Source: a virus
IMG/VR virus record: IMGVR_UViG_3300018080_000099
Location: 1 to 64,000 of that record
Strand: one strand, 5' to 3'
DNA: 64,000 nucleotides
Made by a program: the position numbers and the translations under genes. Within the stretch, counting starts at the first letter, position 1; each line of letters opens with the position of its first letter. The notes beneath the pieces were generated by a model. That model saw only the letters and a program-made list of their open reading frames with translations. It made no database searches and was not told the DNA's origin. Shown here in pieces: positions 6,162-44,040 of the stretch.

Positions 6162-6175
6162 GAAAGGCGCGTATT

Positions 6176-6679: not shown

Positions 6680-6690
6680 AAGGAACCATA

Positions 6691-7586: not shown

Positions 7587-8156
7587 ATGAAAATCTTTGT
7601 TGACGTGGACACACAGGGAGACTTCGTCAATCCTGACGGAGCACTTGCAGTGCCAAATGCCGAAACCATCCGGCCCATTCTCGCCAACCTGACAAAGCTG
7701 GCGAAGGACCAAGACATTCCCATCATCAAAACGATGGACGAGCATGATGGTTCGGAACCTGAAATGTCGTGCAATGGTGGCCCTTTCCCTCTCCACTGTA
7801 TGGAAGGTACCGAGGGACAGGCGAGCATCATCGAAACCGGAACCAAGAAGGCAAAGATATTCACCAAGAAGTGTTACAATGTCTTTGACGAGAAGCTTGG
7901 GAATCCGTACATTGCCAACTGGCTCAGGGATAACAAAGTCACGGAAGCATGGGTGTACGGACTTGTCGGTAACATCTGTGTGGAAGCGGCAGTCATGGGC
8001 TTGGTAGGACATGGCATTAAGACTTTCGTCTTTGAGAATGCTGTGGTATGGATGGACTTGGATGAAGGCATCTTCGTGAAGGGGCCTGACAATAAGGAAC
8101 AGTCTGTTGCCAGAATGAGAAAGGCAGGCGCAATCTTCGCACAAGCGAGACTATAA
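7587..8156 (+). CDS. pncA: nicotinamidase / isochorismatase-family hydrolase (PncA-like)
   Basis: VDxQxDF N-terminal motif (KIFVDVDTQGDFV), conserved Lys and catalytic Cys context (GLVGNICVEAAV). Confidence 0.7.
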   Translation: MKIFVDVDTQGDFVNPDGALAVPNAETIRPILANLTKLAKDQDIPIIKTMDEHDGSEPEMSCNGGPFPLHCMEGTEGQASIIETGTKKAKIFTKKCYNVFDEKLGNPYIANWLRDNKVTEAWVYGLVGNICVEAAVMGLVGHGIKTFVFENAVVWMDLDEGIFVKGPDNKEQSVARMRKAGAIFAQARL

Positions 8157-8166
8157 AGGACGAATA

Positions 8167-9006
8167 ATGGAAATCGACGGTAAGGTAGTAGCGGAACGTG
8201 CCCGTGAGATACTGAAGGAGTACGTTAAAGAAAGCGGGATTCGCAGTCTCGTCATTGGAGTTTCAGGTGGAGTGGATTCGGCAGTGTGTTGTGCATTGGC
8301 TTATCCAGTTTGCATAGAGCTTGGCATCCCTCTCTTGGGAATCAGCATCCCGATTGACTCCAATAAGCAGGACGAAATCCAAAGAGCCAAGCTTGTTGGT
8401 GAGTCACTCTGTACTAAGTTCCAAGAGATTGACAAGACGGCAATGTATAAGCTGACTTTGGGCGACATTGCAGACAGAGACAAAACAATCCTTGCCGACA
8501 ACCACGCAGCTAGAGTACGTCGAGGGAACATCAAAGCCCGAATGCGAATGATAGAGCTGTACGACGCGGCTCAAGCCACGGGCGGTATGGTTCTGTCAAC
8601 TGACAACCTGACGGAGTACTTGTTAGGCTTCTGGACTCTCCACGGCGATGTGGGCGACTTCGGAATGATTCAAGAACTGTGGAAGATGGAAGTCTATCAA
8701 CTCGCTACATACCTTGCCAAGGAATCTGAAGCATCTAATCCCGTTGGAACCTCAGCAATGGTGAGATGTGCTCAGGCAACCCCGACTGACGGACTGGGTG
8801 TGAGTGAAAGCGACCTTGAACAACTCGGTGCCGAAAGCTACGAGAAGGTCGACGACATTCTGAACTTCCATACCATCATCGGTTACAGGATGCCTGAAAA
8901 GGAAAATTGTCCTGTCATCCAAAGGCACAAAGCATCACGCTACAAAAGAGACAACCCGTTCAACATTAAGCGTAGTATGCTTTTGGATGAGGAGGACGAT
9001 GAATGA
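8167..9006 (+). CDS. nadE: NH3-dependent NAD+ synthetase NadE
   Basis: PP-loop SGGVDS (GVSGGVDSAV), NAD synthetase signature regions; ATGA overlap with next gene. Confidence 0.8.
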   Translation: MEIDGKVVAERAREILKEYVKESGIRSLVIGVSGGVDSAVCCALAYPVCIELGIPLLGISIPIDSNKQDEIQRAKLVGESLCTKFQEIDKTAMYKLTLGDIADRDKTILADNHAARVRRGNIKARMRMIELYDAAQATGGMVLSTDNLTEYLLGFWTLHGDVGDFGMIQELWKMEVYQLATYLAKESEASNPVGTSAMVRCAQATPTDGLGVSESDLEQLGAESYEKVDDILNFHTIIGYRMPEKENCPVIQRHKASRYKRDNPFNIKRSMLLDEEDDE

Positions 9007-9653
9007 AACTAGGTATCTTCGGTGGAGCATTTGACCCTCCACACAAAGTCCACTGGGGAATTGTCAATCAGCTCTTGGACAATAAGCATCTTGACAAAAT
9101 CATTGTGATGCCATCTTTCCAGAAGATGGGTAAGGACACATGGGCTACTCCTGAGCAACGGTTAGACATGTGCCATAAATGCTTTGCTGAGTTTACTCCT
9201 GAAGTCATTGTCAGTGATTGGGAAATCCGTAACCAAACCGAAGGACATGCTCTCGAAACTTACCGGCACGTCGTGGAAGATGAAAAAGTCAAGGCAATTT
9301 TCAATGCTACCGAGGAACCAGATGTTTACTTCATTATTGGTGGTGACTGTGCTAGAAACATTGAGAAGTGGTGGCACTACGATGAACTCAAGCACGAAAT
9401 GATGTTTTGTGTTTTTGACAGGCCGAATCACACAGTAACCAATATTACTCCCGGCAGAGGATGTATTCACATTCCATACTACAACAGCAAAGTCTATGAT
9501 GATGTTTCATCTTCCAAAGTCCGATACCAGCTTGCTCGTGGTTTGGATTCAAGCTTTGAAGCAAATACTCATCCCGCTGTCCGAAAGTACATTCGGGATA
9601 ACAACCTTTATCGTCAGCCTGAGCTAGGCGAGGCTAAGTACTTAAGAGGATAA
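9003..9653 (+). CDS. nadD: nicotinate/nicotinamide mononucleotide adenylyltransferase (NadD/NMNAT family)
   Basis: cytidylyltransferase (H/T)xGH motif GGAFDPPHKVH; size ~216 aa. Confidence 0.7.
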   Translation: MKLGIFGGAFDPPHKVHWGIVNQLLDNKHLDKIIVMPSFQKMGKDTWATPEQRLDMCHKCFAEFTPEVIVSDWEIRNQTEGHALETYRHVVEDEKVKAIFNATEEPDVYFIIGGDCARNIEKWWHYDELKHEMMFCVFDRPNHTVTNITPGRGCIHIPYYNSKVYDDVSSSKVRYQLARGLDSSFEANTHPAVRKYIRDNNLYRQPELGEAKYLRG

Positions 9654-9657
9654 TACT

Positions 9658-19130: not shown

Positions 19131-19381
19131 AACGATACGATGAACCTTCCTACATGCGCGCCGACCCTTATCCTATTCAATCCACAAGGCTCAGTGAAAC
19201 CCTGAAGGACAGGAAAATACGTGCCGAAAGAGAAAGCCGGGAGAATCTTGAAGCTCACCGGGAACTGATAAACTATGCCGAAGAGGTAAAAGCTAAGTTC
19301 AGAGAAGAACGTGGCAAAGCACCGAAGGCAAATGCTACAGTCGATTGGAAGAAACCTTTCATTCCGACTATTGAGGAATAA
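19127..19381 (+). CDS. hypothetical protein
   Basis: ATGA overlap with upstream stop (ORF 19082..19381 trimmed). Confidence 0.45.
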   Translation: MKRYDEPSYMRADPYPIQSTRLSETLKDRKIRAERESRENLEAHRELINYAEEVKAKFREERGKAPKANATVDWKKPFIPTIEE

Positions 19382-20013
19382 TGGAATTCAATACTTACAC
19401 AGACTTGTTCTTCAAAGAGGGACGCTTTGAAGCTCATGAACAGTGGATGAAGGACAACCTTATCTTTGAAGCTGTGATGGGCTCTCAAGCATATGGACTA
19501 GCTACGCCAGAATCCGATGTTGACGTTGTGGCTCTGGTGATGAACAAGGAAGAGCATCTGTGGCCTCAGAGGTATGGGTATGTGGTGGGTTTCGACACCA
19601 TCCCCAACTTCGAGTCCAAAGAGATAAAGGGCAAAGAGAAACGTATCTACTTGCCCGATGGAAGGGACGTTGAAGGCGAGTGGAACAGCTTAGTCAGATT
19701 CTTCTATCTGGCTGGGTTGAAAGGCTCACCGAATCTGATTGAGATTCTTTTCGTCAGGCGTCCGATGATTAAGTTCGGCCACAAGATTGCATGGAACCTG
19801 ATTGACAATAAGCACAAGTTCCTCTCCATGAGGACGTTCCATGCCTTCAAGGGCTATGCTTTCCAGCAAGTTGCTCGTATTAGAAGAGCTGTTGAACGAA
19901 ATGAACAAAATTATCGTCAAGCAGAAAGACTTGAGAAATCTTTGAATTTGGATAGAAGTTATCATATTGACGAAATAAAAGAAGAAATGGAAAAACGTGG
20001 ATTAAAAATATAA
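19381..20013 (+). CDS. predicted nucleotidyltransferase (Pol-beta superfamily)
   Basis: GS-x9-DxD motif: VMGSQAYGLATPESDVDVV; 3' end AT-rich. Confidence 0.45.
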   Translation: MEFNTYTDLFFKEGRFEAHEQWMKDNLIFEAVMGSQAYGLATPESDVDVVALVMNKEEHLWPQRYGYVVGFDTIPNFESKEIKGKEKRIYLPDGRDVEGEWNSLVRFFYLAGLKGSPNLIEILFVRRPMIKFGHKIAWNLIDNKHKFLSMRTFHAFKGYAFQQVARIRRAVERNEQNYRQAERLEKSLNLDRSYHIDEIKEEMEKRGLKI

Positions 20014-20112: not shown

Positions 20113-20766
20113 ATGAGTATTCATATTATCTACAAGACTTATTGTATTCCAACACAAAAGTATTATGTTGGACAACATAAACAAGAAACACAAGAGTTTG
20201 ATGGATATTTAGGTTCTGGTTTAAAAATTAAAAGAGCAATTAAGAAGTATGGAAAAGAGAACTTTTTTCGTGAAACTCTTGAAGTTTGTTCAGAAGATGT
20301 TGTTGACGAAAGAGAAATATTTTGGATTGATAAATTAAGTGCAACAGATATTGGTTATAATATAGATGTTGGTGGTTCTGGTGGTAATAACATTGTTTGG
20401 ACTGAAGAAAAAAGAAAAGAACATTCTTTGATACGCAAAGGAAAATTTTTAGGAGAAGACAATTCTAACTTCGGTAATAAGTGGACAGATAAACAAAAGC
20501 AACTTATTAGTCGGTTGAATAAGGGTAGAAAGCAATCCCAAGAGACGATTGATAAAAGAGTTACTAAGAATAAAGGAAAGAAGAGAAGTCAAAAGTTTGT
20601 TATAGAAAACATTGAGCGAATGAAAAAACTAAAAGAAAATAATCCAGACATATTTAGTTCTGGTAAAGATACTGTTTGGATGAACAATGGAAAAGTTACT
20701 AAAAGAGTAAGAATAAAAGAAGTCGAACAATTTGAAATGAAAGGTTTTATAAAAGGAAGATTATGA
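20113..20766 (+). CDS. GIY-YIG homing endonuclease (I-TevI-like catalytic domain + C-terminal DNA-binding repeats)
   Basis: IYKTYCIPTQKYYVGQ...YLGSG...R...E..W..L...GYNI; gene is AT-rich relative to surroundings. Confidence 0.75.
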   Translation: MSIHIIYKTYCIPTQKYYVGQHKQETQEFDGYLGSGLKIKRAIKKYGKENFFRETLEVCSEDVVDEREIFWIDKLSATDIGYNIDVGGSGGNNIVWTEEKRKEHSLIRKGKFLGEDNSNFGNKWTDKQKQLISRLNKGRKQSQETIDKRVTKNKGKKRSQKFVIENIERMKKLKENNPDIFSSGKDTVWMNNGKVTKRVRIKEVEQFEMKGFIKGRL

Positions 20767-21882: not shown

Positions 21883-21912
21883 TTGACATCCAATCCTCCA
21901 ACGTATTATATT
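21883..21912 (+). promoter_or_regulatory. sigma70-type promoter
   Basis: tattgacatccaatcctccaacgtattatatt. Confidence 0.45.
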
Positions 21913-23765: not shown

Positions 23766-24259
23766 TGGCACTCATCATCACGGCACCCAAAGAAGTCTAC
23801 TCAATTGAGAACACCAAGAACACGAAGCTGTTTTTGGCAGGAGGGGTTACGAATTGTCCTGACTGGCAGACGGCGGTTTGTAAGGAGCTACGTGGAGTTG
23901 ATGGACTGACAATCTACAACCCACGGCGCAAGACATTCAAGGACACTCCACAAGAGGCAGAGAAACAGATAGTGTGGGAATACAACCACCTTGCGGATGC
24001 CGACATTCTTGCGTTCTGGTTCTCTCATGGTTCTCTGAATCCCATTACTCTCTATGAGTTGGGAAGGTGGGGAAACTCAGCTAAGAAACAATTAATCATC
24101 GGGATTGACCCGAAGTACCAACGCAGGCAGGATGTCATTGTACAGACGATACTTGCAAGGGATGACTTCAATGCGGAGTCTGATTTCTCTGATGAGCTGT
24201 CTGCTTTTTGTAAACAAGTGTGCGTTACAGTACGCAACCGAATGTGGTGGAGCATATAA
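23765..24259 (+). CDS. nucleoside 2-deoxyribosyltransferase-like (Rcl/DNPH1 / PF05014-like) protein
   Basis: KLFLAGG...PDW......IYNP...W...L..ADILAFWFSHGSLNPITLYELGRW pattern typical of this fold. Confidence 0.4.
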   Translation: MALIITAPKEVYSIENTKNTKLFLAGGVTNCPDWQTAVCKELRGVDGLTIYNPRRKTFKDTPQEAEKQIVWEYNHLADADILAFWFSHGSLNPITLYELGRWGNSAKKQLIIGIDPKYQRRQDVIVQTILARDDFNAESDFSDELSAFCKQVCVTVRNRMWWSI

Positions 24260-24268
24260 GGAGGAGTC

Positions 24269-24475
24269 ATGAGAGTAGGACAAGAAGTATTCATTGTTGG
24301 TGGAACCGATGACGACTACGAAGGACACATCTACAAGTCCGAAGAAGAAATCATGAAGGCTTTGAGTATTGAGAATGTCATGGAACTCGACCACATCATG
24401 AAGGTTCAAATCGTTAGCTTCCACAAGATTGTAACGAGGACTCCAGTCCTTGAGGAGATAGAGGAAGATGGGTGA
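24269..24475 (+). CDS. hypothetical small protein
   Basis: RBS AAGGAGGAG. Confidence 0.4.
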   Translation: MRVGQEVFIVGGTDDDYEGHIYKSEEEIMKALSIENVMELDHIMKVQIVSFHKIVTRTPVLEEIEEDG

Positions 24476-25139
24476 AACACATCCGAGCTACGGCCAAATA
24501 GGATTCAGTAGAACATCCTCCAGTGGCAACCGAAGGCTTTACGGAACTTCCATAAACCATCGGAACACAATCCGGCTGGAGATTAAGGAGTCCGAAGTCA
24601 GACGCGACCTCAATCGGTATTGGTACTTTGCTCCTAAGACCATCATTGAAGTCGAGATGTCACAGAACCAGTTTGCTGAATTGGTTAGCTCATTCAACAT
24701 GGGCGACGGCGTCCCTTGTACAATCACAAGAAGGGACGGGGAACTGGTTGACCCTCCGCCATGTGAGAATGTTCGTGATGTGCTGGAGAATGAGTTCCAA
24801 GATGACATCGACAGAAACTTGGCAAGAACCATCGAGCTTATTGAAAAGGCCGAGGAAATGCTGAGTCAGAAGAAAGCAATCACCAAGGCTCAGATGCATG
24901 ACCTTGAGGAAATACTATTCCACCTGAAACAGGACCTTCAGTCCAATCTGAAGTTCGTTATGCAGAGCTTCAACAAACAGGTGAATAAATCCGTAACCGA
25001 GGCTAAGGGAGAGATTGAAGCCTTTGTAGAAACGAAGGTGCGCTCATATGGCATTGAGCATTTGAAGAAGGATGCTCAGGTTTCCCTGCCCGATGAAATG
25101 ACTAAGGAGTTACCAGATGGACAAGACAATCACCTTTGA
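24468..25139 (+). CDS. hypothetical protein
   Basis: ORF track. Confidence 0.5.
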   Translation: MGETHPSYGQIGFSRTSSSGNRRLYGTSINHRNTIRLEIKESEVRRDLNRYWYFAPKTIIEVEMSQNQFAELVSSFNMGDGVPCTITRRDGELVDPPPCENVRDVLENEFQDDIDRNLARTIELIEKAEEMLSQKKAITKAQMHDLEEILFHLKQDLQSNLKFVMQSFNKQVNKSVTEAKGEIEAFVETKVRSYGIEHLKKDAQVSLPDEMTKELPDGQDNHL

Positions 25140-25557
25140 ATTGGATATGACTGACAATGAGCACGCATTTTTCTATGATGACTTAATTTCATTTAAAGGT
25201 GTGAGTAAGGTTGCTCTTGGTTGTCAGGGTGACTTCCGTGAAGAGTTTGATGAATTCCCGTCTACTTCTACTGGTATGGGTGGAACCTTAAGTTATAGAG
25301 TTACAGCAGACGAAGAAGTCATTAAAACATTTGAGGAAAAGCTTAAAGAAGGTTATAAAATAGTTTATAAGGAAATATGTTATAATATAGGGGCGAGATT
25401 AAAATCAAAAAATATGTTCCCGCCAACTCAAAGAAGAGTTCAATTTTCATATTCTGGTAAAAATGCTAAAAAGATTTGTGAGTGGATGTATGAAGGTTCA
25501 AATAAAGAAATAAGAATGGAAAGAAAGTATAAAAAGTTTAAGGAGTATTTTAAATGA
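25117..25557 (+). CDS. hypothetical protein (AT-rich gene)
   Basis: RBS AAGGAG; low GC 3' half. Confidence 0.45.
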   Translation: MDKTITFELDMTDNEHAFFYDDLISFKGVSKVALGCQGDFREEFDEFPSTSTGMGGTLSYRVTADEEVIKTFEEKLKEGYKIVYKEICYNIGARLKSKNMFPPTQRRVQFSYSGKNAKKICEWMYEGSNKEIRMERKYKKFKEYFK

Positions 25558-26330
25558 AAAAGCAATCATCACTTGGAACAAGATGTAAAACTTATGAAAA
25601 AGCAACAGAGATTTATTTGACAAGAAGGACTCCTGTCATTATTCGTCTTGACGGTGTTGCTTTTCACACATTGACAAAAGGTATGAACCGTCCGTTCGAT
25701 GATGATTTGATTGAATGTATGACTAAAACAACTCAATCCCTTGTCAAAAATATTGAGGGTTGTGAGTTCGGTTATACGCAATCAGATGAAATAACTTTGC
25801 TATTAACAGATTATAAAAAGTTAGAAACTCAGGCTTGGTTTGATTATCGTAAAAGCAAAATAGAAAGCGTGGCGGCTTCAATGGCAACGGCATATTTCAA
25901 TCACGAGTTTATGGCTAAGTTCCCTGAAAGGTATGATAGGAAGCCAGCATTCTTTGATGCTCGCGCTTTTAATGTTCCAAGAGAAGATGTTGTAAACGTG
26001 GTTATCTGGCGCCAACAAGACTGTACTCGTAACTCGATTCAGATGGTTGGACAAGCCAACTTCTCACACAAACAACTCCACGGTAAGTCCTGTGATGCAA
26101 TTCAGGAAATGCTTTGGCAGGAACACAACATCAACTGGAATGATACTGAGACTCACAAGAAGCGTGGCACATGTGTTTACAAAACTACTCGCTTCGTTCC
26201 ATTGAGTCAGGGCCTGTCTGCTGTAGGAATGTCACAAAGAACTGAATACACGATTGACAGGGAGATTCCTATATTCACTCAGGACAGAGAGTTTGTTCAG
26301 CAATGGGTGGACGTTGAGGAGGATGAGTAA
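25554..26330 (+). CDS. tRNA-His guanylyltransferase (Thg1)-like 3'-5' nucleotidyltransferase
   Basis: VIIRLDGVAFHTLTKGMNRPFDDDL, GYTQSDEITLL, VIWRQQDCTRNS: colinear with Thg1 motifs (RxDG..FH, QSDE, WRQ.DC). Confidence 0.7.
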   Translation: MKKQSSLGTRCKTYEKATEIYLTRRTPVIIRLDGVAFHTLTKGMNRPFDDDLIECMTKTTQSLVKNIEGCEFGYTQSDEITLLLTDYKKLETQAWFDYRKSKIESVAASMATAYFNHEFMAKFPERYDRKPAFFDARAFNVPREDVVNVVIWRQQDCTRNSIQMVGQANFSHKQLHGKSCDAIQEMLWQEHNINWNDTETHKKRGTCVYKTTRFVPLSQGLSAVGMSQRTEYTIDREIPIFTQDREFVQQWVDVEEDE

Positions 26331-26332
26331 GC

Positions 26333-26599
26333 ATGTTTAGAGATATTGAAGCTTGGGAAGCTTGGATGGAAAGCTATAGAGAACAAGAAAGAATAAGATG
26401 TCCTCATTGTAACTTTGATGCTTCTTTTGATGGGAATGGTTTTGAAATGTGTGAAGCTGGAGTAAAAGTTTCTTACAGTGGTTATCCCGATGAAGAAGAC
26501 CAAATCATTGAATGCCCGAGTTGTGAGAAACCTTTTAAGATTCGGGAGCATGTTAGAAGGACATATGACACCTGTAAAATAGATGAGGAATTCGAATGA
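26333..26599 (+). CDS. zinc-ribbon protein (CPHC...CPSC)
   Basis: ORF track. Confidence 0.5.
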   Translation: MFRDIEAWEAWMESYREQERIRCPHCNFDASFDGNGFEMCEAGVKVSYSGYPDEEDQIIECPSCEKPFKIREHVRRTYDTCKIDEEFE

Positions 26600-26730
26600 C
26601 ACACATTGGTAGAGGACTTGCCAGCCTAGCAGTCTGTGGATTAGCTGCGTGGAGTATGCATGTCTCAGGCGGTTCAACAGGAGTCGGCTGGGGAATCTTT
26701 GGACTCTTTATCATTTGGGCTAACGTCTAA
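26596..26730 (+). CDS. small membrane peptide (44 aa)
   Basis: ATGA overlap; hydrophobic; below ORF-track cut-off. Confidence 0.3.
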   Translation: MTHIGRGLASLAVCGLAAWSMHVSGGSTGVGWGIFGLFIIWANV

Positions 26731-26741
26731 AGGAGTTATTA

Positions 26742-27028
26742 TGCAATGCCATTTCAAAGGGATTGGTCCGCCTGTTCGAGCTAAGCCGGGACTTCGTCAG
26801 CTTGCCAGAGAATTAGCAGACTACGACCATGATATTGAGGAACTAAAAGAAGGTCGAAACGAAATCATGGAGCGTATCAAGGCAATCTGCAACCACCCGG
26901 ATACTGAAAAGAAATCGCACAGTATTCCCGGTTCTTACTTAGACAGGTCTCAGTACCACGAGCAAATCGTGTGTAGTATCTGTGGTAAGGTGTTGGACGA
27001 AAAAGTCTCATACGGGAGCTTCGGATGA
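26742..27028 (+). CDS. hypothetical protein with C-terminal CxxC
   Basis: ATG with RBS AAGGAG inside ORF 26660..27028. Confidence 0.45.
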
Positions 27029-27384
27029 ACAATCACATTGACAAAGGCTACGTCACTTTCTACAATGGAATCATTTGCATCCATGACTACCAGTACTATT
27101 CGTATATGTGGCATGAGGACATCACCATTAAGACTGACGGAGATGGAATCACAGTCACGGCAACCCAAAGACAGATGGTTGACAACGAAGATATTAGAAG
27201 CTACAAAGACTACCCCGAGTCGTTTGAGGAAGTCCCTTACAAGGTGCCATACAAACTGTTTGGCTTCATTCCAATGCTCAGGTGGGCTAAGAGTCGTTGG
27301 TTGCTGAAAGCACGCAAGAAACAGACATGGCACTCAAAGACTTGGGAATTCGAGGAGAGGTTAAATGTCACTACCGATACCTGA
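27025..27384 (+). CDS. hypothetical protein
   Basis: ATGA overlap. Confidence 0.5.
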   Translation: MNNHIDKGYVTFYNGIICIHDYQYYSYMWHEDITIKTDGDGITVTATQRQMVDNEDIRSYKDYPESFEEVPYKVPYKLFGFIPMLRWAKSRWLLKARKKQTWHSKTWEFEERLNVTTDT

Positions 27385-27535
27385 AGAATATGATGCCACA
27401 TGGGTAATCGTGCTAAAGATAGTGATTACTGTTGTAACACTTGTCATTGTGGCTGTTACGTCCATCGGTGAAGGTTTCAAGATACTTCAACGCCGAAAGC
27501 GGAGAGGGCCCTCAATGGGCTTCAATAAGGAATAG
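27365..27535 (+). CDS. small membrane peptide (56 aa)
   Basis: single TM helix then basic tail; below cut-off. Confidence 0.3.
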   Translation: MSLPIPEEYDATWVIVLKIVITVVTLVIVAVTSIGEGFKILQRRKRRGPSMGFNKE

Positions 27536-27537
27536 AC

Positions 27538-28017
27538 ATGGGAATAGGTCCATTTAGTCATTGGTTGAGCGAAAGCTCTGCACCATCCAAACCGATTGGT
27601 GCTCCGTCATCCGGCCCAATTAGGCCGGGTAAGGTAACTCAGCTGGGCCATGCTGACTTTCACCCATACGTCACTCCAACCGATTATAAGGAGATAGTTG
27701 CGAGGATTGAGAAGGTAGAGAAGATTAATGAGCGGAACCCAAGAGCCGACAGGTACCATATTGAAAAGTCCCTGCAAGTCGGTACTGCACTCATCTTATA
27801 CATATCATATCCTAACTGTACGAACTATGAAGGCAGGAAGGTTCTTGTCTATAAGGATATGACGCTTGACAGATTGATGGTGCTTAACCACCAGCTTATC
27901 GACCCTCATTTCTCTGACAGCCCAAAGTTCATCTCTCCCATTGCTAGGTTCGTGCCAACCGACGAAGGAGTCAGGTTAGCAATTGAATTAGCAGAGCTTC
28001 TGTCAAGAGACTATTGA
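27538..28017 (+). CDS. hypothetical protein
   Basis: ORF track. Confidence 0.5.
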   Translation: MGIGPFSHWLSESSAPSKPIGAPSSGPIRPGKVTQLGHADFHPYVTPTDYKEIVARIEKVEKINERNPRADRYHIEKSLQVGTALILYISYPNCTNYEGRKVLVYKDMTLDRLMVLNHQLIDPHFSDSPKFISPIARFVPTDEGVRLAIELAELLSRDY

Positions 28018-28343: not shown

Positions 28344-29678
28344 ATGGCTACTTCACTTGAAGGAGTGGAAGCAGTACTTGAAGGCGTATTAGAACTGAGT
28401 ATTTCCCGATGGGATAAAATACTTACAGTTACTCCAATAGAACAGGCACTTATGGCTGTGGGAATCCACGGCATAGGTAAGTCCGAGTTCTTTACCAAAT
28501 GGCATGAAGACCACGGCTTTGCCGTCATCACCTTGTTCTTAGGACAGATGGCAGACGCCGGTGATGTCATTGGCCTACCTGACAGAACCGAAGTAGAATT
28601 CCGATACAAGGGACAAGTCCTCAAGCAGAAGATAACTGAGTTCTGTCCTCCCAAGTGGTGGCCCAGAGATGAAGATGTCAAACTTCTTCTATTCTTAGAC
28701 GAGTTCAACCGTGGGAAGCAGGAAGTCTATCAATGCATACAAGACATGACGTTGAACAGAAAACTCAACGGATTGGAACTCCCTGCCCAAACACGCATCA
28801 TTGCAGCTCAGAATCCCCTTGACGATAAGTACGGCTACCAAGTCACCGAGATTGACCCAGCTCTGTGGGACCGATTCAATGTCTATGGCTTCTCGCCTGA
28901 AGCAAAAGAATGGATTCACTGGGCGATGGACAATAAGGTTCACAGACATATCATTGGCTTCCTCACTAAGAATACAGTAGAGCTTGACCCGCCTGCAAAC
29001 GGCAAGATGGGTGTGGTATATCCTTCAAGACGCTCATGGGTACGGCTCAGCAACATCCTGAAAAACCATCCACAGATTCTTGGAGAAGATGAGCTTATCC
29101 TTCTTCGGGAACTGGCGGAAGGTATCGTTGGTTCAGCCGCAACATCTAAGCTTTTCACATTCCTCAAAGAGAACTTCAAGGGACTCAATCCCGGTAGAGT
29201 TGTCACGAACTGGAATGAAGAAGTAGAAGAAATCGTCAAGCAGATGGACAACCAATCCAAGCTTGCATTCAATGCTGAGTTGGCAATCCACCTTGAAGAA
29301 AACGAGAAAGACTACTTCGACATTGCAGGAGCTAAGCAGAAAGAGAAGTACGCATACAATATATACCAGTATCTCAAAACGGTGCCGAGGGAAATCATGG
29401 CTGACTTCTACGATTACGTTGGTGATGCTACTACCGAGCGCAAGAAGGGTTGGCCATCGAAACTGCTTGATTGTAACATTCAGGGATTGGTACATGACTT
29501 CATTGACGTTTATCATGGCGATGATAGCAAGATGAGTGCAGAGCCAACTATAAATCCTGAGGAGCATTTCAGCGAACCGGGCATTGATTTGGAAAAGGAC
29601 GATTCTCCTTTCCCTCCGTCTGATAACCCAGACCCGTTCGACGACCCTGATATTCAGGGGCTCCTTGGGGATTCATAA
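28344..29678 (+). CDS. AAA_5-family ATPase (MoxR/CobS-like)
   Basis: Walker A GIHGIGKS, Walker B LLFLDEFNR, sensor IIAAQNP. Confidence 0.65.
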   Translation: MATSLEGVEAVLEGVLELSISRWDKILTVTPIEQALMAVGIHGIGKSEFFTKWHEDHGFAVITLFLGQMADAGDVIGLPDRTEVEFRYKGQVLKQKITEFCPPKWWPRDEDVKLLLFLDEFNRGKQEVYQCIQDMTLNRKLNGLELPAQTRIIAAQNPLDDKYGYQVTEIDPALWDRFNVYGFSPEAKEWIHWAMDNKVHRHIIGFLTKNTVELDPPANGKMGVVYPSRRSWVRLSNILKNHPQILGEDELILLRELAEGIVGSAATSKLFTFLKENFKGLNPGRVVTNWNEEVEEIVKQMDNQSKLAFNAELAIHLEENEKDYFDIAGAKQKEKYAYNIYQYLKTVPREIMADFYDYVGDATTERKKGWPSKLLDCNIQGLVHDFIDVYHGDDSKMSAEPTINPEEHFSEPGIDLEKDDSPFPPSDNPDPFDDPDIQGLLGDS

Positions 29679-30976
29679 TGGCTGACTTTGCGGAAGCTCA
29701 AAACAAAATCAACAAAGTTATCTGGGGGCTGTGGCAATCCGATGGAGTAATGTTCGGTGCTCTCAGTATGCTTGACAAGATTCCAGACCCACGACAGGAC
29801 ACGATGGGTTTGGATTTGTCAAGCAGAACGCCTACACTAAGATACAATCCTAACTTTGTCAACAAGATTTCTCAGGAAAGACTTGAGCTTGTCCTTGTCA
29901 TTGAAGGCTTCCGAACTCTCCTGAGACATGCCACAACAAGACTGAAAGACCCCGCACAAATCTCTGCGCTGTCATCTTCGCTTGCCATTAACCAGTTGAT
30001 GAACGATGACTTAGAGAAGTTACTTCAAGGTATTGATGAAGTGACTCCTGCCCCTGAGCGGTTTGGACTTGAATCAAACCAAGCTTTTGAGGAGTATTAT
30101 CGTGGGCTGATGGACAAGCTGGCTAAGACAAATGCCATGATAGCTCAAATCTGGGGCTCAATGAATCAGGAAGAAAAGCAGGAGATGATGCAGAATGCCT
30201 TTGACAAATATCAGCAAATGATGGATGAGCGAGACCAAAATGCTGACGAGGACGGTTATCAGCAGTACGATGATGAAGGCAAAGCTCTAAAGGACTACAT
30301 GGACCCGAATGGCACAGGTAATGATGGATGGTCTAAGAATGACTTGTTTGATGCTTCTGTCAAGAACTTTGTCAACAAGATGAAGCGCAGAACAGACCAA
30401 TGGGGAAAATACACAGGAAAGGCAAAGGCAACCATTTCAGCTGCATTGGAACCAAAGATTTCTGCTAAGGACATTCTGAGAAAGTTCTCATGTTCAGTCT
30501 TGACAGGTAAGACAGAAACTTCCCGAATGAAAGTAAACCGGCGTTGGGATATTGAAAGGCCGGGTTATCGTAGAATCTATAAGCCCAAAGTCATCTTTGC
30601 CATTGACAGTTCAGGTTCAATGGATGATGAGGACTTGGCATATGGGTTTGCTGTTGTCAATCGGACGCTTTTCTATGCTGAGATTATCTTTGTGGAGTTC
30701 GATACTGAGATAAAGATAATTGAAAAGAGCTTCAAAAAGGCAAAGAAAGAGTTTGCAGTTCATGGCAGGGGAGGCACCGACTTTGAGCAGATTATGAATT
30801 TATCTGATGAGTTGGACGTAGACGGAACTATTGTGTATACAGATGGATGTGCGGGACCTCCTCACCAGCCGAGGGGCAAGGTGTTGTGGCTCTTACATGC
30901 AAAAGGTGCTAAGCCGCCAGTTGGCTGGGGAATGCGTGCTCACCTTGACAGATTTGAGGATGGACGGATATGGTAA
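29678..30976 (+). CDS. von Willebrand factor A (VWA) domain protein (CobT-like partner of AAA ATPase)
   Basis: MIDAS DxSxS (VIFAIDSSGSMDDE), TDG motif (VYTDGCAG); ATGA-type adjacency to ATPase. Confidence 0.65.
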   Translation: MADFAEAQNKINKVIWGLWQSDGVMFGALSMLDKIPDPRQDTMGLDLSSRTPTLRYNPNFVNKISQERLELVLVIEGFRTLLRHATTRLKDPAQISALSSSLAINQLMNDDLEKLLQGIDEVTPAPERFGLESNQAFEEYYRGLMDKLAKTNAMIAQIWGSMNQEEKQEMMQNAFDKYQQMMDERDQNADEDGYQQYDDEGKALKDYMDPNGTGNDGWSKNDLFDASVKNFVNKMKRRTDQWGKYTGKAKATISAALEPKISAKDILRKFSCSVLTGKTETSRMKVNRRWDIERPGYRRIYKPKVIFAIDSSGSMDDEDLAYGFAVVNRTLFYAEIIFVEFDTEIKIIEKSFKKAKKEFAVHGRGGTDFEQIMNLSDELDVDGTIVYTDGCAGPPHQPRGKVLWLLHAKGAKPPVGWGMRAHLDRFEDGRIW

Positions 30977-31221: not shown

Positions 31222-31497
31222 ATGGATAAGAGACATGCTTATCTGTTTGTTAAGTTCCTTGAAACTGAGATGAAAAAGATTGATGAGGACAAGTTCTTTG
31301 AAGGGCTTCGTATCAGTGCCGACCCCGGCCAATCTTTCATTGTGGACTGGATTAATCGCAATGCTAAGAATTGGCGTGAGGAGTGGGAGTCATCCTGTTG
31401 CCAGCACTGTGTGTTCTGGAAAGTTTGTGGGCATCGAGTCCTTCAGAAGTGTAAAGAATTCAAATTAGACCCAAAGGAGCAAGACAACGATGGCTAA
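31222..31497 (+). CDS. hypothetical Cys-containing protein
   Basis: RBS GGAGGGAG. Confidence 0.45.
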   Translation: MDKRHAYLFVKFLETEMKKIDEDKFFEGLRISADPGQSFIVDWINRNAKNWREEWESSCCQHCVFWKVCGHRVLQKCKEFKLDPKEQDNDG

Positions 31498-32368
31498 GAA
31501 AATACTGGTATTAAGCGGCGGCGGCGTTAAAGGATGTATTCAAATACAGGTACTCAAGAAGTTAGAAGAAGAATTGGGACCTCTACATGAACACTACGAC
31601 TTGATTTGTGGAAGCTCAGTCGGTGCCATTAATGCCGGTATCATTGCTTCAGGTAAAGTCACCATGAAACATCTCGTTGACATTTATCCTGACATGCTCG
31701 AAAGAACCTTTGAGAAAAGAGGAATTCGTATTCCTCGTTACGATAGAAAGAAATTCATCAAAATCTGGGCTGACCTTGTTGGTATGATGAAGATGAAAGA
31801 AAGCAAAACAAAGCTTCAAATTACTTCACTCAATCTCTGCGACAAACGAAATCACTTCTTTAAGTCATGGACTAAAGATGGTGAGCAGTATCTTGTCAGC
31901 GAGATTGTCAAATCCTTTGCGGCTCCGTTCTACTTCGGTACCTTGAAGGATGCAAAGAACAAATGCGTATGGATGGACGGCGGTATGGGAATCGCTAACA
32001 TTCCGATTCTCTATGCGCTTGTTGAGTCCGATATGCTTTGGCCAACCGAGGATAAGGTAGACTACGACATCATTGGCTGTGGGTTTGTCAACAACGACAT
32101 TCCTTATCGCAAGGCTAAAAGGTACAGAGTCTTTAGACAACTCGGACAATACTTCAATTTGGATGATGGTGGGCTTGCCCGCGAACAGGTTCGTCAGGAA
32201 CAAATTGGTATGATTACTCAGCTTGCCAAAGTCAACGCGGCTCTTGACTTCAGGTACTGGGACATTCAGATTCCAAAGAAGATGGACGGACTGGACAAGA
32301 TTAAGTATATCCCTTACTATTATGATTATGGCAAAGAGATGGCTAAGAAGCCTTTACTTATAAGTTAG
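31490..32368 (+). CDS. patatin-like phospholipase
   Basis: oxyanion GGGVKG, nucleophile elbow GSSVG, catalytic DGG (WMDGGMG). Confidence 0.7.
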   Translation: MAKKILVLSGGGVKGCIQIQVLKKLEEELGPLHEHYDLICGSSVGAINAGIIASGKVTMKHLVDIYPDMLERTFEKRGIRIPRYDRKKFIKIWADLVGMMKMKESKTKLQITSLNLCDKRNHFFKSWTKDGEQYLVSEIVKSFAAPFYFGTLKDAKNKCVWMDGGMGIANIPILYALVESDMLWPTEDKVDYDIIGCGFVNNDIPYRKAKRYRVFRQLGQYFNLDDGGLAREQVRQEQIGMITQLAKVNAALDFRYWDIQIPKKMDGLDKIKYIPYYYDYGKEMAKKPLLIS

Positions 32369-40564: not shown

Positions 40565-40590
40565 GGGAGCTATGCACGGCTCCCCTTTTC
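40565..40590. terminator. bidirectional terminator between convergent + and - arms
   Basis: GGGGAGCUAUGCACGGCUCCCC flanked by A-run (left) and U-run (right). Confidence 0.6.
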
Positions 40591-40872
40591 TTCGTCCTGC
40601 AGTTCAGTAATCTCAGTAGCATCTATCGCATACTGAGCTATGCGAGCAACCTCCGGATGATGTCTGTCCTTCAAACGAAGGATGGTTTCCTTCCGGTCCC
40701 GAAGAACTTTGACGGCTAACTCAAGCTCCTCATCCTTATTAAAGATGATGCGCTTCTTGAAGTTGGTGCGGTTCTTGTTGACAAGCAGCTGGATGACTCC
40801 ACCATTCATTCCATGAAAGAGTAAGCGCCATCCTAACTTGCCACGCTCTGAGGCTTTTGGTATCTCACTCAT
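40570..40872 (-). CDS. hypothetical protein (last gene of - operon)
   Basis: ORF track. Confidence 0.45.
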   Translation of the reverse strand: MSEIPKASERGKLGWRLLFHGMNGGVIQLLVNKNRTNFKKRIIFNKDEELELAVKVLRDRKETILRLKDRHHPEVARIAQYAIDATEITELQDEEKGSRA

Positions 40873-41198
40873 AGTGTGATGTGACTCCTGTCAACAAGTT
40901 CAAAGCCCAGAGGGTTTGAATCCTTCCGCTGAATGATTTCATTGGCGGCATACCGAATAGACAGCTTCTTGTGCTTCAGAAAGAGTATCGCCTTCTTCTT
41001 TCCGAGGTCATTGTCCTTGTTGCGGAACATTTCCTTCATGTCCTCGAACAAATCAATGTTCTTTCGCACAACTTCTGTCCATCCACCGAACTTATCTGCC
41101 GTTTCCTCCTCCTGATATGCAATCTCAAAGGCATTGGCATAGATACGGTAGATAGTCGGCTTACCTTTTGGTCCCATCTCCATGTGAACTCCTTTCAT
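40869..41198 (-). CDS. small protein, family B (…ILFLKHKK…IRYAANEII)
   Basis: shares LL(Y/F)(R/L)KH...CY/IRY motif with 41161, 41434, 41680 ORFs. Confidence 0.45.
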   Translation of the reverse strand: MKGVHMEMGPKGKPTIYRIYANAFEIAYQEEETADKFGGWTEVVRKNIDLFEDMKEMFRNKDNDLGKKKAILFLKHKKLSIRYAANEIIQRKDSNPLGFELVDRSHITL

Positions 41199-41427
41199 TC
41201 ATGATGGTGTAACATAAGTCCTTAACAATCTTGCTTTCGTGTTTCCGATACAGCAATGATGTGGCTCTATCGCCTTGAAACAACTTCTTGAACACGTCAA
41301 CCTCTTGTGCTGACACCCAGACTTCCTGATGAGCTTCATCCATTGTCCAGATTTCAGCTAGCAGGCAGTTACCATACCACCGGCTTTCATCCATTTTACA
41401 GAAGTACTTTCCAAGCTTCGCTACCAC
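41161..41427 (-). CDS. small protein, family B (…TSLLYRKHESKIVKDLCYTI)
   Basis: paralog motif. Confidence 0.45.
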   Translation of the reverse strand: MVAKLGKYFCKMDESRWYGNCLLAEIWTMDEAHQEVWVSAQEVDVFKKLFQGDRATSLLYRKHESKIVKDLCYTIMNERSSHGDGTKR

Positions 41428-41433
41428 AACAGT

Positions 41434-41664
41434 CTACTTTCCATCAAGGATTCTGTAACACAGCTCCTTGATTACATTGTGCTTGTGCTTTCTATACAGT
41501 AAGGCAGTTGTCTTATCACCTTTCAGCAACATCTCAACAGCCATAACATCTTCATTGTCAATCGGGAACTCAGCAGGCAAACTCATTGCTGACGACCACC
41601 GTTCAATGCCGGTGTAGTCATCCTTCTTGACAATCCGATAGTATGGAATACCTTGTTCACTCAT
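41434..41664 (-). CDS. small protein, family B (…TALLYRKHKHNVIKELCYRI)
   Basis: paralog motif. Confidence 0.5.
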   Translation of the reverse strand: MSEQGIPYYRIVKKDDYTGIERWSSAMSLPAEFPIDNEDVMAVEMLLKGDKTTALLYRKHKHNVIKELCYRILDGK

Positions 41665-41679
41665 AATAAAAATACATCA

Positions 41680-42084
41680 TCACAAAGGAAAAATCAATCC
41701 ATTAAGGTTAGGGAGCTTCTCTAAGTCAGTACGTTCTCCGTGTGTCACCATGAAGTCCTCTTTGTCAATCACTTTATAGCAGGCCCAGCGAAGTGGTTTA
41801 ATGTCACTCCTTCTATATAGTAAGGCTGTTTTGGGATTCCGATTGACAATGACATCAACGGCATCCGAGTACAACTTCCGAGAGTGTACATTGAACCTGA
41901 GGAGTGAGCCTTCGTAAATCCAGTCCTCTTCTTCGCGGAGGTCTGGATATTGGAGCATTGTCAGCCGATAGACAACGATTAACTCTTCCTTCTCAACGTA
42001 GTCAAAAGAATACGTTTCCACACATTCCTTGTATCTAAAGGCTGGTGACATATGCTTTTGTGACCTTCTATGATTAGTTGACAT
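41680..42084 (-). CDS. small protein, family B (…TALLYRRSDIKPLRWACYKVI)
   Basis: paralog motif; start may be internal (42051). Confidence 0.45.
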   Translation of the reverse strand: MSTNHRRSQKHMSPAFRYKECVETYSFDYVEKEELIVVYRLTMLQYPDLREEEDWIYEGSLLRFNVHSRKLYSDAVDVIVNRNPKTALLYRRSDIKPLRWACYKVIDKEDFMVTHGERTDLEKLPNLNGLIFPL

Positions 42085-42461
42085 AAAGATGTAACAAGCC
42101 TTTGGGTAGACTTGTCCCTAGCTTCGGTAAGCATTTCCATAGCTGTATCGGAATGTTCATCATCCCCACGAATCAGACGCTTACAAAGGATGAAGTGCGG
42201 GTCGCCCTTCTCCAAGTTCCATATGTGGTTGGCATCCTCATCATGGAACATGTAAATGTCTTTAAGTATATCACTTCCTGTGAAGAGCATCAGCTCTTCT
42301 CCGAAGTCAACAAACACGAATCTTAGTCCATACTTGCCGTTTTTGACTTCGAACTTCCGATAGTAGTACCGCCTGAATTCCTTTTCTTTGAATTTTTGGT
42401 CTCTGGTGAATCCCCTAGCAAGCTTATCAACTGCTTTCAGAGTCAACGGGTAATGCATCAA
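41979..42461 (-). CDS. hypothetical protein (160 aa)
   Basis: ORF track. Confidence 0.45.
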   Translation of the reverse strand: MMHYPLTLKAVDKLARGFTRDQKFKEKEFRRYYYRKFEVKNGKYGLRFVFVDFGEELMLFTGSDILKDIYMFHDEDANHIWNLEKGDPHFILCKRLIRGDDEHSDTAMEMLTEARDKSTQRLVTSLCQLIIEGHKSICHQPLDTRNVWKRILLTTLRRKS

Positions 42462-42471
42462 ACCTCCTCAG

Positions 42472-42762
42472 TTAAGCCATACCGCCACTAATCGCAACCC
42501 GACACGCACCACCGACCACGTAGTACAACAGGTTGGACGGCATATCTATATCCGTAACCTTCTTCATTAGCTTCTTGACTTCTCTCACATCCTCAGGCAT
42601 AATCATGATGGGTATTCGCTTTCCATCCACGATTGGTGTGTACAGCGCATTCTCTCTGTGGTATGTGAAAATAATCTTGTGCCTTCCGAACTTAAGCTTC
42701 ACAATCTCTTTCATAATCAGTAATATGTCGTGCCATCCATTCAAGCGTTTCCATCGAAACAT
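42472..42762 (-). CDS. hypothetical protein (start uncertain; ORF extends to 42837)
   Basis: ORF track 42472..42837 overlaps neighbour; internal Met MFRW chosen. Confidence 0.35.
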   Translation of the reverse strand: MFRWKRLNGWHDILLIMKEIVKLKFGRHKIIFTYHRENALYTPIVDGKRIPIMIMPEDVREVKKLMKKVTDIDMPSNLLYYVVGGACRVAISGGMA

Positions 42763-42979
42763 AGGAGTCAGCACTTCTTTGGAACTCAGCCCGAAGCTTC
42801 CTCGCATGTGCATCAGTGAGAAGATTGATAGCATCATTTAAGTTTTCCTCGGTTTGGTCCACAGTCCATCTTTGCCAAGTTCCGTTGTTGAAGATAGTAA
42901 GTATCTCCCAGATTGGCTTTGGCTGAGCCATATCTAATTTGTGGATGGTAGCTTTCTGAATGTACCAAATGTAGTTCAT
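42692..42979 (-). CDS. small protein, divergent family C member
   Basis: ORF track; W-rich. Confidence 0.4.
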   Translation of the reverse strand: MNYIWYIQKATIHKLDMAQPKPIWEILTIFNNGTWQRWTVDQTEENLNDAINLLTDAHARKLRAEFQRSADSYVSMETLEWMARHITDYERDCEA

Positions 42980-43236
42980 CCTTCCGAATCGTCCTCAAGC
43001 TTCCAAATACTCACCATGAGCAAATCCATTTGGTCTTCGTCTGAAAGCTTGTCCAAGTTGAATGTCTTATCGCTATTTATCTTTCGAGCAAATAAGACAT
43101 CCGTAAGTATCTCAACGAGATACGGCATCATTGGAAGGCTGACTTCGGATATGGGGAATTGTTTCAGCTTGAATTCGTCCATGAGCACGAATTCGTAACT
43201 CTGCCATGCAGTCCTGCGAAACGTCCACCTGAGCAT
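42976..43236 (-). CDS. small protein, family C (MLRW…)
   Basis: N-terminal M-x-R-W motif. Confidence 0.5.
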   Translation of the reverse strand: MLRWTFRRTAWQSYEFVLMDEFKLKQFPISEVSLPMMPYLVEILTDVLFARKINSDKTFNLDKLSDEDQMDLLMVSIWKLEDDSEG

Positions 43237-43274
43237 ACCATCTACCTATATTATACATTATTGACTGCCGAAAG

Positions 43275-43676
43275 TCAATTCTTGAACTGTTCAATGATAT
43301 TATCAACCCTGTCCTCTGACGAAGTCGACTCTTCATCTTCCTCGATGAGGGACTCAGCAACTTCTTCCACAATCGTCTTAGGCTCAGGAAGGATGGGCTC
43401 TATGGTGTAAACGCTGTCGCCCGAGCCAGCATAATTTAAGGCCTTGACAGCTTCTTCCAATTGGTCCATCGACGACCATATCCAGCCCTTCCAATAATCT
43501 GAAGTAATATGAATGAGGCTTGGATTGTCCTTAGGGTCATTGGATTGTCTGGCTCCTTTGATGCTATCAAAAGGCATCATTATCCATCTTTCCTGCTGTC
43601 CTTCAACGTGGTTGTTGGGATGCACAAACTCCCTAAACCTTATGAACTTCATTGTGGGTTTCATGTAGTTCATCAT
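43275..43676 (-). CDS. hypothetical acidic protein (133 aa)
   Basis: ORF track. Confidence 0.5.
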   Translation of the reverse strand: MMNYMKPTMKFIRFREFVHPNNHVEGQQERWIMMPFDSIKGARQSNDPKDNPSLIHITSDYWKGWIWSSMDQLEEAVKALNYAGSGDSVYTIEPILPEPKTIVEEVAESLIEEDEESTSSEDRVDNIIEQFKN

Positions 43677-43704
43677 TCCTCCTAGTCTTTGAACTGTTCA
43701 GGCA

Positions 43705-44040
43705 TCATCCCTCCCCGAACTTCTTGACAACATCCCCGACAGCATCAACGACTTGGTCGACTACCTGTCCTACTGTCGGCGTCGCAGGCTCTACTCTGTC
43801 ATCCTCATTAAGGACTTGAGGTTCTGGTTCTGGCTCAGCTTTCTGAGGCATCTTGTCAATACAATCCTGACAAATATGAAAGTCATCCTCATCATCCCAG
43901 CCACAATCAATAATGGCTAGAATTGCTTTAGTTACTCCATCGAATTGAATACGCTTACAATCCCCGAAGTTCACGTATTCTCTACCACATACATTACAAA
44001 TAACCTTCCTATCAACACTCATCTTCATATCCTCCTTCAT
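43705..44040 (-). CDS. zinc-finger protein (CNVCG…C…CQDC) with acidic PEPEPEP tail
   Basis: ORF track. Confidence 0.5.
   Translation of the reverse strand: MKEDMKMSVDRKVICNVCGREYVNFGDCKRIQFDGVTKAILAIIDCGWDDEDDFHICQDCIDKMPQKAEPEPEPQVLNEDDRVEPATPTVGQVVDQVVDAVGDVVKKFGEG

Follow-up and report, generated by a model that had tools for sequence, protein, structure and literature searches.

A predicted bacterial-type Thg1-like protein in an uncultured jumbo phage and its possible part in the repair of tRNA 5' ends

Why would a large bacteriophage carry a gene related to that for tRNA-His guanylyltransferase, and what would it do with the product? The question is raised by positions 25554–26330 of a 64,000-nucleotide viral DNA (positions 1 to 64,000 of IMG/VR virus record IMGVR_UViG_3300018080_000099; this whole stretch is called the window below). 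A first-pass annotation of the window had assigned the gene to Thg1 and the Thg1-like proteins (TLPs) from its motifs, and had suggested that a phage TLP might repair tRNAs damaged by the host. We analyzed the gene, its active site, its genomic context and its relatives in other viruses. Our data support the assignment to the family and point to a bacterial-type TLP that is accompanied, on the same genome, by other genes for RNA-end repair. The role of the protein is more difficult to establish, and several explanations are weighed below.

The open reading frame (ORF) was present as first described. It is intact and encodes 258 amino acids on the + strand, with an ATG at 25554 and a TAA that ends at 26330. 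The ATG shares the sequence ATGA (25554–25557) with the stop codon of the ORF upstream, and only 2 nt separate the TLP stop from the start of the next ORF, which places the gene within a tightly packed array of co-directional genes. The gene and its possible expression signals are as follows:

25554–26330, + strand: TLP gene (ORF; matches to PF04446, phrog_4717 and PDB 4kgk; residue mapping on BtTLP and homologs)
25540–25545, + strand: AAGGAG Shine-Dalgarno sequence, read from the sequence, 8 nt 5' of the TLP start
21883–21912, + strand: candidate sigma-70-like promoter, TTGACA-18-TATATT, 11 of 12 matches, ~40 nt 5' of an AAA-ATPase gene

Transcription of the co-directional genes, the TLP among them, could start from the candidate promoter, but the evidence for this is weak and only suggestive, as the total of promoter-like sites, like the terminator scan, was not above the shuffled expectation.

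Membership of the family is well supported. The profile search for PF04446 (Thg1) that the first-pass annotation had put forward as a check returned 113.3 bits (E = 9.6e-33, gathering cutoff 29.2) across profile positions 3–130 of 130, and the PHROGs family phrog_4717, “tRNA-His guanylyltransferase”, matched residues 4–255 with E = 9.7e-93. By far the best match in the PDB was 4kgk, the bacterial enzyme BtTLP (E = 1.3e-66, query residues 5–253 against chain residues 2–238), followed at a distance by human THG1 (1.6e-13), Candida Thg1 (3e-12) and a Methanosarcina TLP (1.9e-10). The C-terminal model Thg1C (PF14413) scored 24.3 bits, slightly below its cutoff of 26.3, and the C-terminal half of the protein aligns end to end with both BtTLP and phrog_4717; an NCBIfam search with the protein gave no match. 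The motifs on which the assignment was originally based are present and in order, namely R31-L-D33-G-x-x-F37-H38, Q76-S77-D78-E79 and W152-R153-Q-Q-D-C.

The active site is intact. To map residues, we carried the roles given in the BtTLP structure paper (PMC3701042) over to an alignment of the query with BtTLP and 119 close homologs (121 sequences in total). The catalytic carboxylates D33 (25650–25652) and D78/E79 (25785–25790) were invariant in all 121 aligned sequences, and they are equivalent to D29/D76/E77 of hTHG1 and D30/D75/E76 of BtTLP (PMC3701042). By this mapping, D33 and D78 would bind metal with E79 as the third carboxylate, R31, K102 and R137 would contact the incoming nucleoside triphosphate (NTP), and the residues that bind the NTP or the 5' end would be E15, R31, H38, T41, R46, D49, S77, K102, R137 and R153. 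Overall, 14 of the 16 functional positions mapped from BtTLP are identical in the query. BtTLP K43, which positions ATP in the activation step, is replaced conservatively by R46. We considered whether R46 might be the sign of an unusual active site and rejected this, as Arg is the majority residue among the close homologs (Arg in 79 and Lys in 41 of the 121); since Arg is the commoner of the two in this clade, the change is best read as a trait of the clade and not as a defect. BtTLP R16, which makes a contact in trans (to the gamma-phosphate), corresponds to Glu19, in a column that varies among the homologs.

Several features indicate that the protein is a bacterial-type TLP and not a bona fide tRNA-His guanylyltransferase, despite the name usually given to it in databases. 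The HINNLYN motif is specific to eukaryotes, and its His stacks on the anticodon base G36 of tRNA-His (PMC6471195). At this site the query has CTRNSIQMV where human THG1 has C-H-I-N-N-L-Y-N-T, and the Asn that acts in the activation step of Thg1 (ScThg1 N161, hTHG1 N158) is replaced by Met164, just as BtTLP has M158 at this position. It is because HINNLYN is absent and this Asn is a Met that we class the protein with the bacterial-type TLPs. The query also scores 228 bits to BtTLP versus 54 bits to human THG1. With the eukaryotic Thg1 enzymes (human 3otb, yeast, Candida) it shares the fold family and the two-metal palm active site, as its family shares their three-step 3'-5' addition chemistry, but in its low score and in both of the sites just described it differs from them.

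BtTLP (4kgk/4kgm; Hyde et al. 2013, PMC3701042) is thus the closest characterized counterpart. The two proteins are similar in size (245 versus 258 aa) and align over their full length; both have the three carboxylates and neither has HINNLYN, and BtTLP residues R28, S74, K99, R131, R147, E12, H35, T38 and M158 are all matched in the query. Beyond the changes at K43 and R16, they differ in that identity is only ~50%, in a short insertion near the C-terminus of the query (about residues 213–228), and in location, BtTLP being encoded on a bacterial chromosome and the query on a jumbo phage. The phage enzyme should depend on a template and lack specificity for tRNA-His. BtTLP is itself 75–77% identical to the TLPs of virulent Bacillus cereus-group myophages (Hobo, BM15, Bcp1), which makes it a reasonable stand-in for phage enzymes; the best-studied “bacterial” TLP is a close relative of phage proteins. 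We also noted that this likeness raises the possibility that the gene moves between these phages and the bacteria they infect, and that published in vitro work on BtTLP may in effect describe a phage-type enzyme.

The source of the window is an uncultured jumbo phage of 264 kb. The identical TLP was found on an ENA metagenome contig of 263,805 bp, ERZ27256796:k141_2651556, and also on a pair of short contigs, each from a further sample (the three samples being ERZ27256796, ERZ27256773 and JGI 3300017991), and phage origin is confirmed because the genes of the 263,805-bp contig match phage families. In the window such matches include a NAD-dependent DNA ligase, a MoxR-type ATPase with a DUF2201 partner, and DNA methyltransferases, and many of the small ORFs are without a family match. 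An ortholog of 72% identity lies on a 253,664-bp JGI/IMG-VR contig that represents a related phage, IMGVR_UViG_3300017917_002466. The nearest relatives of the TLP, at 72–73% identity, are metagenomic only, and its homologs in GenBank phages are at most 49% identical. A search of window positions 24000–28000 for near-identical DNA in GenBank phages gave no match, a search of IMG/VR for exact DNA patterns did not recover a copy of this phage, and the DNA ligase protein of the window is at most 31% identical to that of any phage record; there is therefore no cultured relative to lend annotation.

The first-pass annotation had implied that a TLP is unusual in a phage, and this did not hold. Searches with tblastn found TLP homologs in 164 GenBank phage records, nearly all of the listed ones at least 88 kb in length, and most of these homologs are annotated “tRNA-His guanylyltransferase”, as they have been since 2008–2013. 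Carriers include Bacillus herelleviruses, phage G, 201phi2-1, Rak2-like and Lak phages, Caulobacter and Brevundimonas giants, and mycobacteriophages. In IMG/VR, a scan built for close relatives yielded 212 confirmed TLP loci. The phage genes of phrog_4717 (e.g., Bc431v3 gp143, Bcp1, phage G gp378 and the “putative Thg1” of 201phi2-1) belong to the same family as the query and, like it, are found in large or jumbo phages, in accessory regions with genes for nucleotide and RNA metabolism, although the immediate neighbors of the query (a putative decayed LAGLIDADG remnant and a zinc-ribbon ORF) differ from those of other phage TLPs. Bc431v3 gp143 was pointed out as an unusual gene in the genome paper of 2013 (PMC3601020), and Iyer et al. 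2021 (PMC7824862) list Thg1 among the RNA-end repair enzymes of jumbo phages, for which they had already proposed such a role; phages are unmentioned in the 2019 review of the enzyme family (PMC6471195). The gene described here is therefore new as a sequence, but it is of a known and widely annotated kind with a functional prediction already published. The annotation by itself is routine, in that the gene would be named by any pipeline that uses Pfam or PHROG.

About 74 kb of the 264-kb genome was read, consisting of the window and 9.6 kb beyond its start, and other genes for RNA-end repair were found within it, here listed with two further genes of the flank (coordinates are those of the window, or of the upstream flank where L089 is given):

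19381–20013, + strand: RlaP-family (RNA-ligase-associated Pol-beta) nucleotidyltransferase, 210 aa (PF10127, 29.6 bits, cutoff 23)
L089 4102–4581: AAA_33/KTI12-type P-loop kinase resembling polynucleotide kinase (PNK-like), 1.2–5.5 kb upstream of window position 1 together with its L089 neighbors to 8393
L089 5022–5714: ART-PolyVal ADP-ribosyltransferase, same upstream flank
L089 6001–6402: CCA-adding-type tRNA nucleotidyltransferase, N-terminal piece, 133 aa
L089 6455–7222: GIY-YIG endonuclease gene, between the CCA-adding pieces
L089 7206–8393: CCA-adding-type tRNA nucleotidyltransferase, second piece, 395 aa

On this contig, the distance upstream from the TLP is 5.5 kb for RlaP and 27–31 kb for the PNK-like kinase and the split CCA-adding enzyme. 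Enzymes of the RlaP family extend damaged 3' ends of RNA by one or two nucleotides (PMC12776372), and we propose that RlaP is the 3'-end counterpart of the TLP in an end-repair set. The two pieces of the CCA-adding enzyme are non-paralogous, and the split could represent an intron or the insertion of a free-standing homing endonuclease. The TLP is thus found in association with other RNA end-healing or end-restoring enzymes (RlaP, PNK-like kinase and CCA-adding enzyme), as in the RNA repair toolkits described for jumbo phages. In the 72% relative (L004/L005), RlaP (9019–9945) abuts the TLP (10001–10825), which is followed by cREC, a fragment of the peptidyl-tRNA hydrolase PTH2 and an R2K ATP-grasp gene. 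We also considered whether the TLP is a component of a defense system and rejected this, as PADLOC returned no match for the TLP, RlaP or the flanking ORFs.

To see which genes accompany phage TLPs more generally, ORFs within 10 kb of the TLP were clustered for 80 IMG/VR loci and the window, and the loci were dereplicated to 32 lineages at 80% TLP identity. The lineage counts below are without a background frequency and are qualitative:

AAA_33/KTI12 kinase: 9 of 32 lineages
Calcineurin-like phosphoesterase (Metallophos): 8 of 32
NAD synthase: 8 of 32
Calcineurin-like phosphoesterase (Metallophos_2): 7 of 32
RlaP: 7 of 32, adjacent or almost so in several
Nicotinamidase: 6 of 32
PemK/MazF-like: 6 of 32
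NAPRTase/NAMPT: 5 of 32
SPFH/Band-7: 5 of 32
YqeY/GatB-like tRNA-binding domain: 4 of 32, directly upstream of the TLP

The same mixture of RNA end-healing and NAD-salvage genes is also present in the window.

From the family, the active site, the type of TLP and this context we infer an enzymatic activity, a tRNA substrate and a counter-defense purpose for the protein. We hypothesize that an active bacterial-type TLP restores the 5' nucleotides of tRNA acceptor stems during infection and so keeps the tRNA pool usable for phage translation, and we consider this explanation probable, if far from certain. All bacterial and archaeal TLPs tested to date act preferentially in the templated repair of 5'-truncated tRNAs, for which a His anticodon is not required (PMC6471195). 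Activation with ATP by BtTLP proceeded at 0.91 per min on a truncated repair substrate and at ~0.0007 per min on full-length tRNA-His, a difference of ~1000-fold (Table 2, PMC3701042).

By homology to BtTLP, the phage protein would be a templated 3'-5' RNA polymerase that works in three steps. In the first, ATP or GTP would activate the 5'-monophosphate of a truncated tRNA; D33 and D78 would form the two-Mg2+ site for this reaction, and S77 and R46 would set the purine in place. In the second, an NTP able to form a Watson-Crick pair with the still intact 3' acceptor strand would be selected and held by R31, K102, R137 and E15, and its 3'-OH would attack the activated 5' end. In the third, the 5'-triphosphate brought in by that addition would itself be the activated end, so that further nucleotides could be joined in turn until the stem was of full length. 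The tRNAs kept usable would be those of the host, plus phage tRNAs if there are any. Within the toolset on this genome, the PNK-like kinase would act on 5'-OH ends, and RlaP and the CCA-adding enzyme on 3' ends; the repair set lies in an accessory region rich in NAD-salvage and other counter-defense genes.

How this bears on the role first suggested for the gene, the repair of tRNAs cut by anti-phage anticodon or acceptor-stem nucleases, requires some distinction. Repair and counter-defense as such are supported by the gene context, both in this phage and across viral contigs. The anticodon nucleases fit poorly, as cuts in the anticodon loop need end-healing and a ligase and a TLP alone would be insufficient. 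The acceptor-stem nucleases do not fit as they stand either, as the anti-phage nucleases found damage the 3' strand or the CCA tail and not the 5' strand. For example, the nick made by retron Eco2 lies 6–7 nt 5' of CCA, and the CCA tail itself is clipped by both Cas12a3 and HEPN-MNT (PMC12916289, PMC12851939). Damage on the 3' side of the acceptor is work for RlaP or the CCA-adding enzyme. None of these three systems would inflict the kind of damage that the TLP is predicted to mend.

A number of points weigh against repair of tRNA 5' ends as the role of this gene. The literature searched held no anti-phage nuclease that shortens tRNA 5' ends and no experiment, enzymatic or genetic, on a phage TLP, and even for the bacterial TLPs it has yet to be established which RNAs they act on in nature (PMC6471195). 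In this phage RlaP is not adjacent to the TLP, being 5.5 kb away, and a scan of ORFs in the ~74 kb read gave no RNA ligase (Rnl1, Rnl2 or RtcB), whereas in the toolkits of jumbo phages RlaP usually tracks ligases (Burroughs & Aravind 2016; Iyer et al. 2021, PMC7824862). In addition, the neighbor associations were obtained with no background test, and each holds in only 20–30% of lineages.

That an enzyme predicted to rebuild 5' ends is widespread in phages while the acceptor-end nucleases found in the literature searched all act on the 3' side suggests either an undiscovered host attack or a housekeeping need during infection. Tentatively, and with more doubt than confidence, we put forward that the TLP is the 5'-strand arm of a ligase-independent kit for tRNA-end repair, directed against an undescribed host defense that trims or modifies tRNA 5' acceptor ends. 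The kit, carried by large phages, would be completed by the PNK-like kinase for 5'-OH ends and by RlaP and the CCA-adding enzyme for the 3' end. Such an attack may, for example, remove G-1 of tRNA-His or the first nucleotides of the acceptor stem. If this were true, phage TLPs would be markers of a branch of tRNA-targeting immunity still to be discovered, and the RNAs on which bacterial TLPs (BtTLP among them) act in nature would be products of phage-host conflict.

The surroundings of the gene also carry signs of how it may have arrived. Its two immediate neighbors are:

25117–25557, + strand: upstream overlapping ORF, 146 aa, no Pfam or PHROG match, GC content at third codon positions (GC3) 0.279
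26333–26599, + strand: zinc-ribbon ORF, 88 aa, two CxxC pairs, sub-threshold Zn-ribbon matches only, GC3 0.258

In a BLASTP comparison, the C-terminal 42 residues of the upstream ORF (residues 103–144; nt 25423–25548) were 45% identical (E = 4e-10) to the C-terminus of a protein encoded at 6063–6899 of an unrelated viral contig (L061). That protein matches LAGLIDADG_3 with 46 bits, and its intact gene (6063–6902) lies directly upstream of a TLP. The upstream ORF is thus probably a decayed remnant of a homing endonuclease. The zinc-ribbon ORF is next to the TLP on all three contigs with the identical TLP. The GC3 of the TLP is 0.378, so that all three ORFs fall below the window mean of 0.492 (standard deviation 0.09, 48 genes). 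The low GC3 of 25117–26599 and the LAGLIDADG match upstream suggest that the TLP arrived in a mobile cassette associated with a homing endonuclease, which would fit the sporadic distribution of TLPs.

Such an origin also allows that the gene is functionless or decaying cargo, recently brought in and unused by the phage. The low-GC3 block made up of the TLP and the two small ORFs, the endonuclease remnant and the sporadic distribution in phages are all in keeping with this, but we consider it very unlikely, given a full-length ORF with a good ribosome-binding site and translational coupling, catalytic residues that are all intact, an identical protein in three samples and a 72% ortholog that has been kept in the related 254-kb phage. 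More attention is due to the task that the usual database name implies, the upkeep of tRNA-His identity, in which the TLP would add or restore G-1 on phage or host tRNA-His for charging by histidyl-tRNA synthetase. In bacteria, G-1 of tRNA-His normally comes from the gene, which speaks against a need for its addition. Most phages with a TLP are large and rich in tRNAs, and one of just five tRNAs of Fusobacterium phage FNU3 is a tRNA-His, although this one already encodes G-1 and has A73, opposite which TLPs add G poorly (PMC6471195). BtTLP adds a templated -1 residue and rescues a yeast thg1 deletion (PMC6471195), but it is far better on truncated tRNAs than on full-length tRNA-His (PMC3701042, PMC6471195), and the HINNLYN motif that reads the anticodon is absent from the phage protein. 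ARAGORN and Rfam searches found no tRNA or other Rfam RNA in the 64-kb window and no tRNA in the upstream flank. A tRNA-His was within 10 kb of the TLP in none of the 80 viral loci, any tRNA in only about one-fifth, and Staphylococcus phage PMBT8 (88 kb, TLP-positive) is without any tRNA gene. We rejected maturation of phage tRNA-His as a general role on the basis of these last two findings, and regard upkeep of tRNA-His identity as unlikely overall. Putting back a G-1 that has been lost would, however, be one particular form of 5' repair; G-1 is the most exposed 5' nucleotide and its loss is plausible damage, so in this respect the explanation partly overlaps with repair of acceptor stems.

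Another possibility is that the substrate is not a tRNA. The TLP might repair or extend the 5' ends of rRNA, phage transcripts or small RNAs, or form adenylylated or guanylylated cap-like 5' ends that would protect phage RNA or alter host RNA. In vitro, the substrates of TLPs extend to RNAs other than tRNA and to externally templated ones, App- and Gpp-RNA intermediates build up with BtTLP, and one Dictyostelium TLP has an essential function that is not yet identified (PMC6471195). The TLP is also found recurrently beside genes of NAD and ADP-ribose metabolism, which we could not tie mechanistically to tRNA repair. These genes are, however, equally explicable as co-located counter-defense cargo, there is no direct evidence of such substrates in any bacterium or phage, and the RNA-linked neighbors (the CCA-adding enzyme, the YqeY/GatB-like domain and the PTH2 of the relative) point to tRNA; we judge a non-tRNA substrate improbable. 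Least probable to us, and scarcely to be expected, is 5' editing of phage tRNAs in the style of protist mitochondria, in which mismatched first pairs are removed and rebuilt by a TLP. For repair-type TLPs, no physiological role other than such editing has been demonstrated (DdiTLP3; PMC6471195), and many TLP-bearing phages have tRNA genes. However, PMBT8 has none, and a mismatch at acceptor pairs 1–3 was seen in only 2 of 34 distinct tRNAs (near phage TLPs or in FNU3), one of them a doubtful call, in a count that rests on ARAGORN, which may miss badly mismatched tRNAs. A signature of 5' editing was rejected on that count. TLP-bearing phages without tRNA genes, such as PMBT8, would be clean systems for finding the role of the TLP.

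During the survey of tRNAs we noted an unusual candidate in human-gut viral contigs. At L014 5164–5234 and L015 3809–3879, ARAGORN reported a “tRNA-???” of 71 nt whose anticodon has only two bases (tg) and whose acceptor stem is perfectly paired. It is conserved in these two phages, which are related, at a distance of a few kb from the TLP gene of each, and could be a tRNA with an unusual anticodon loop.

The window also contains a near-complete set of genes for salvage of nicotinamide to NAD (~7587–16683, + strand), in which a further gene of interest is embedded:

~7587–8156, + strand: nicotinamidase
8167–9006, + strand: NAD synthase (NadE)
9003–9653, + strand: NMNAT-like gene of the cytidylyltransferase fold
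9658–10239, + strand: NUDIX
10224–13220, + strand: vault-like protein, 998 aa (Major Vault Protein shoulder PF11978, 85 bits; Vault_3 repeat; SPFH/Band-7)
14292–14927, + strand: NADAR
15511–16683, + strand: NAPRTase

The salvage set probably rebuilds NAD against NAD-depleting host defenses. NAD-salvage genes were among the commonest neighbors of the TLP in other viral contigs, for which we have no mechanistic explanation. The gene for the vault-like protein lies between the NUDIX and NADAR genes, within this NAD and ADP-ribose cluster. A vault-like protein is unusual in a phage; it had no PHROG match, and its homologs were found in only three GenBank phage records, all of huge uncultured phages of 462–735 kb, at ~44% identity. 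Genes with SPFH/Band-7 domains also recur near the TLP in other phages (5 of 32 lineages), and in Fusobacterium phage FNU3 a gene annotated as “prohibitin” is located 640 bp downstream of the TLP.

Other features of the window were also recorded:

20113–20766, + strand: ORF of 217 aa directly downstream of RlaP, no Pfam match, lowest GC3 of the window (0.193, z = -3.3)
28344–30976, + strand: gene pair of a MoxR-type AAA_5 ATPase and DUF2201 (VWA/metallopeptidase), just upstream of the phospholipase
31490–32368, + strand: patatin-like phospholipase, matching the PADLOC CBASS-type “Effector phospholipase” models (E = 1e-33)

The 217-aa ORF may be another recent acquisition. The phospholipase is phage-encoded and yet matches models of defense effectors, and both it and the MoxR/DUF2201 pair are conserved in the 254-kb relative. 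Further along, at 40570–48014, there is a run of ~25 consecutive very small ORFs (54–160 aa, mostly 55–110) on the - strand, opposite to the rest of the window. Two ORFs of this region were checked against Pfam; the small ORF at 41982–42461 had no match, and the DNA methylase at 48202–49065, which adjoins the run, did. In appearance, the run of small ORFs looks like an early-gene or host-takeover block.

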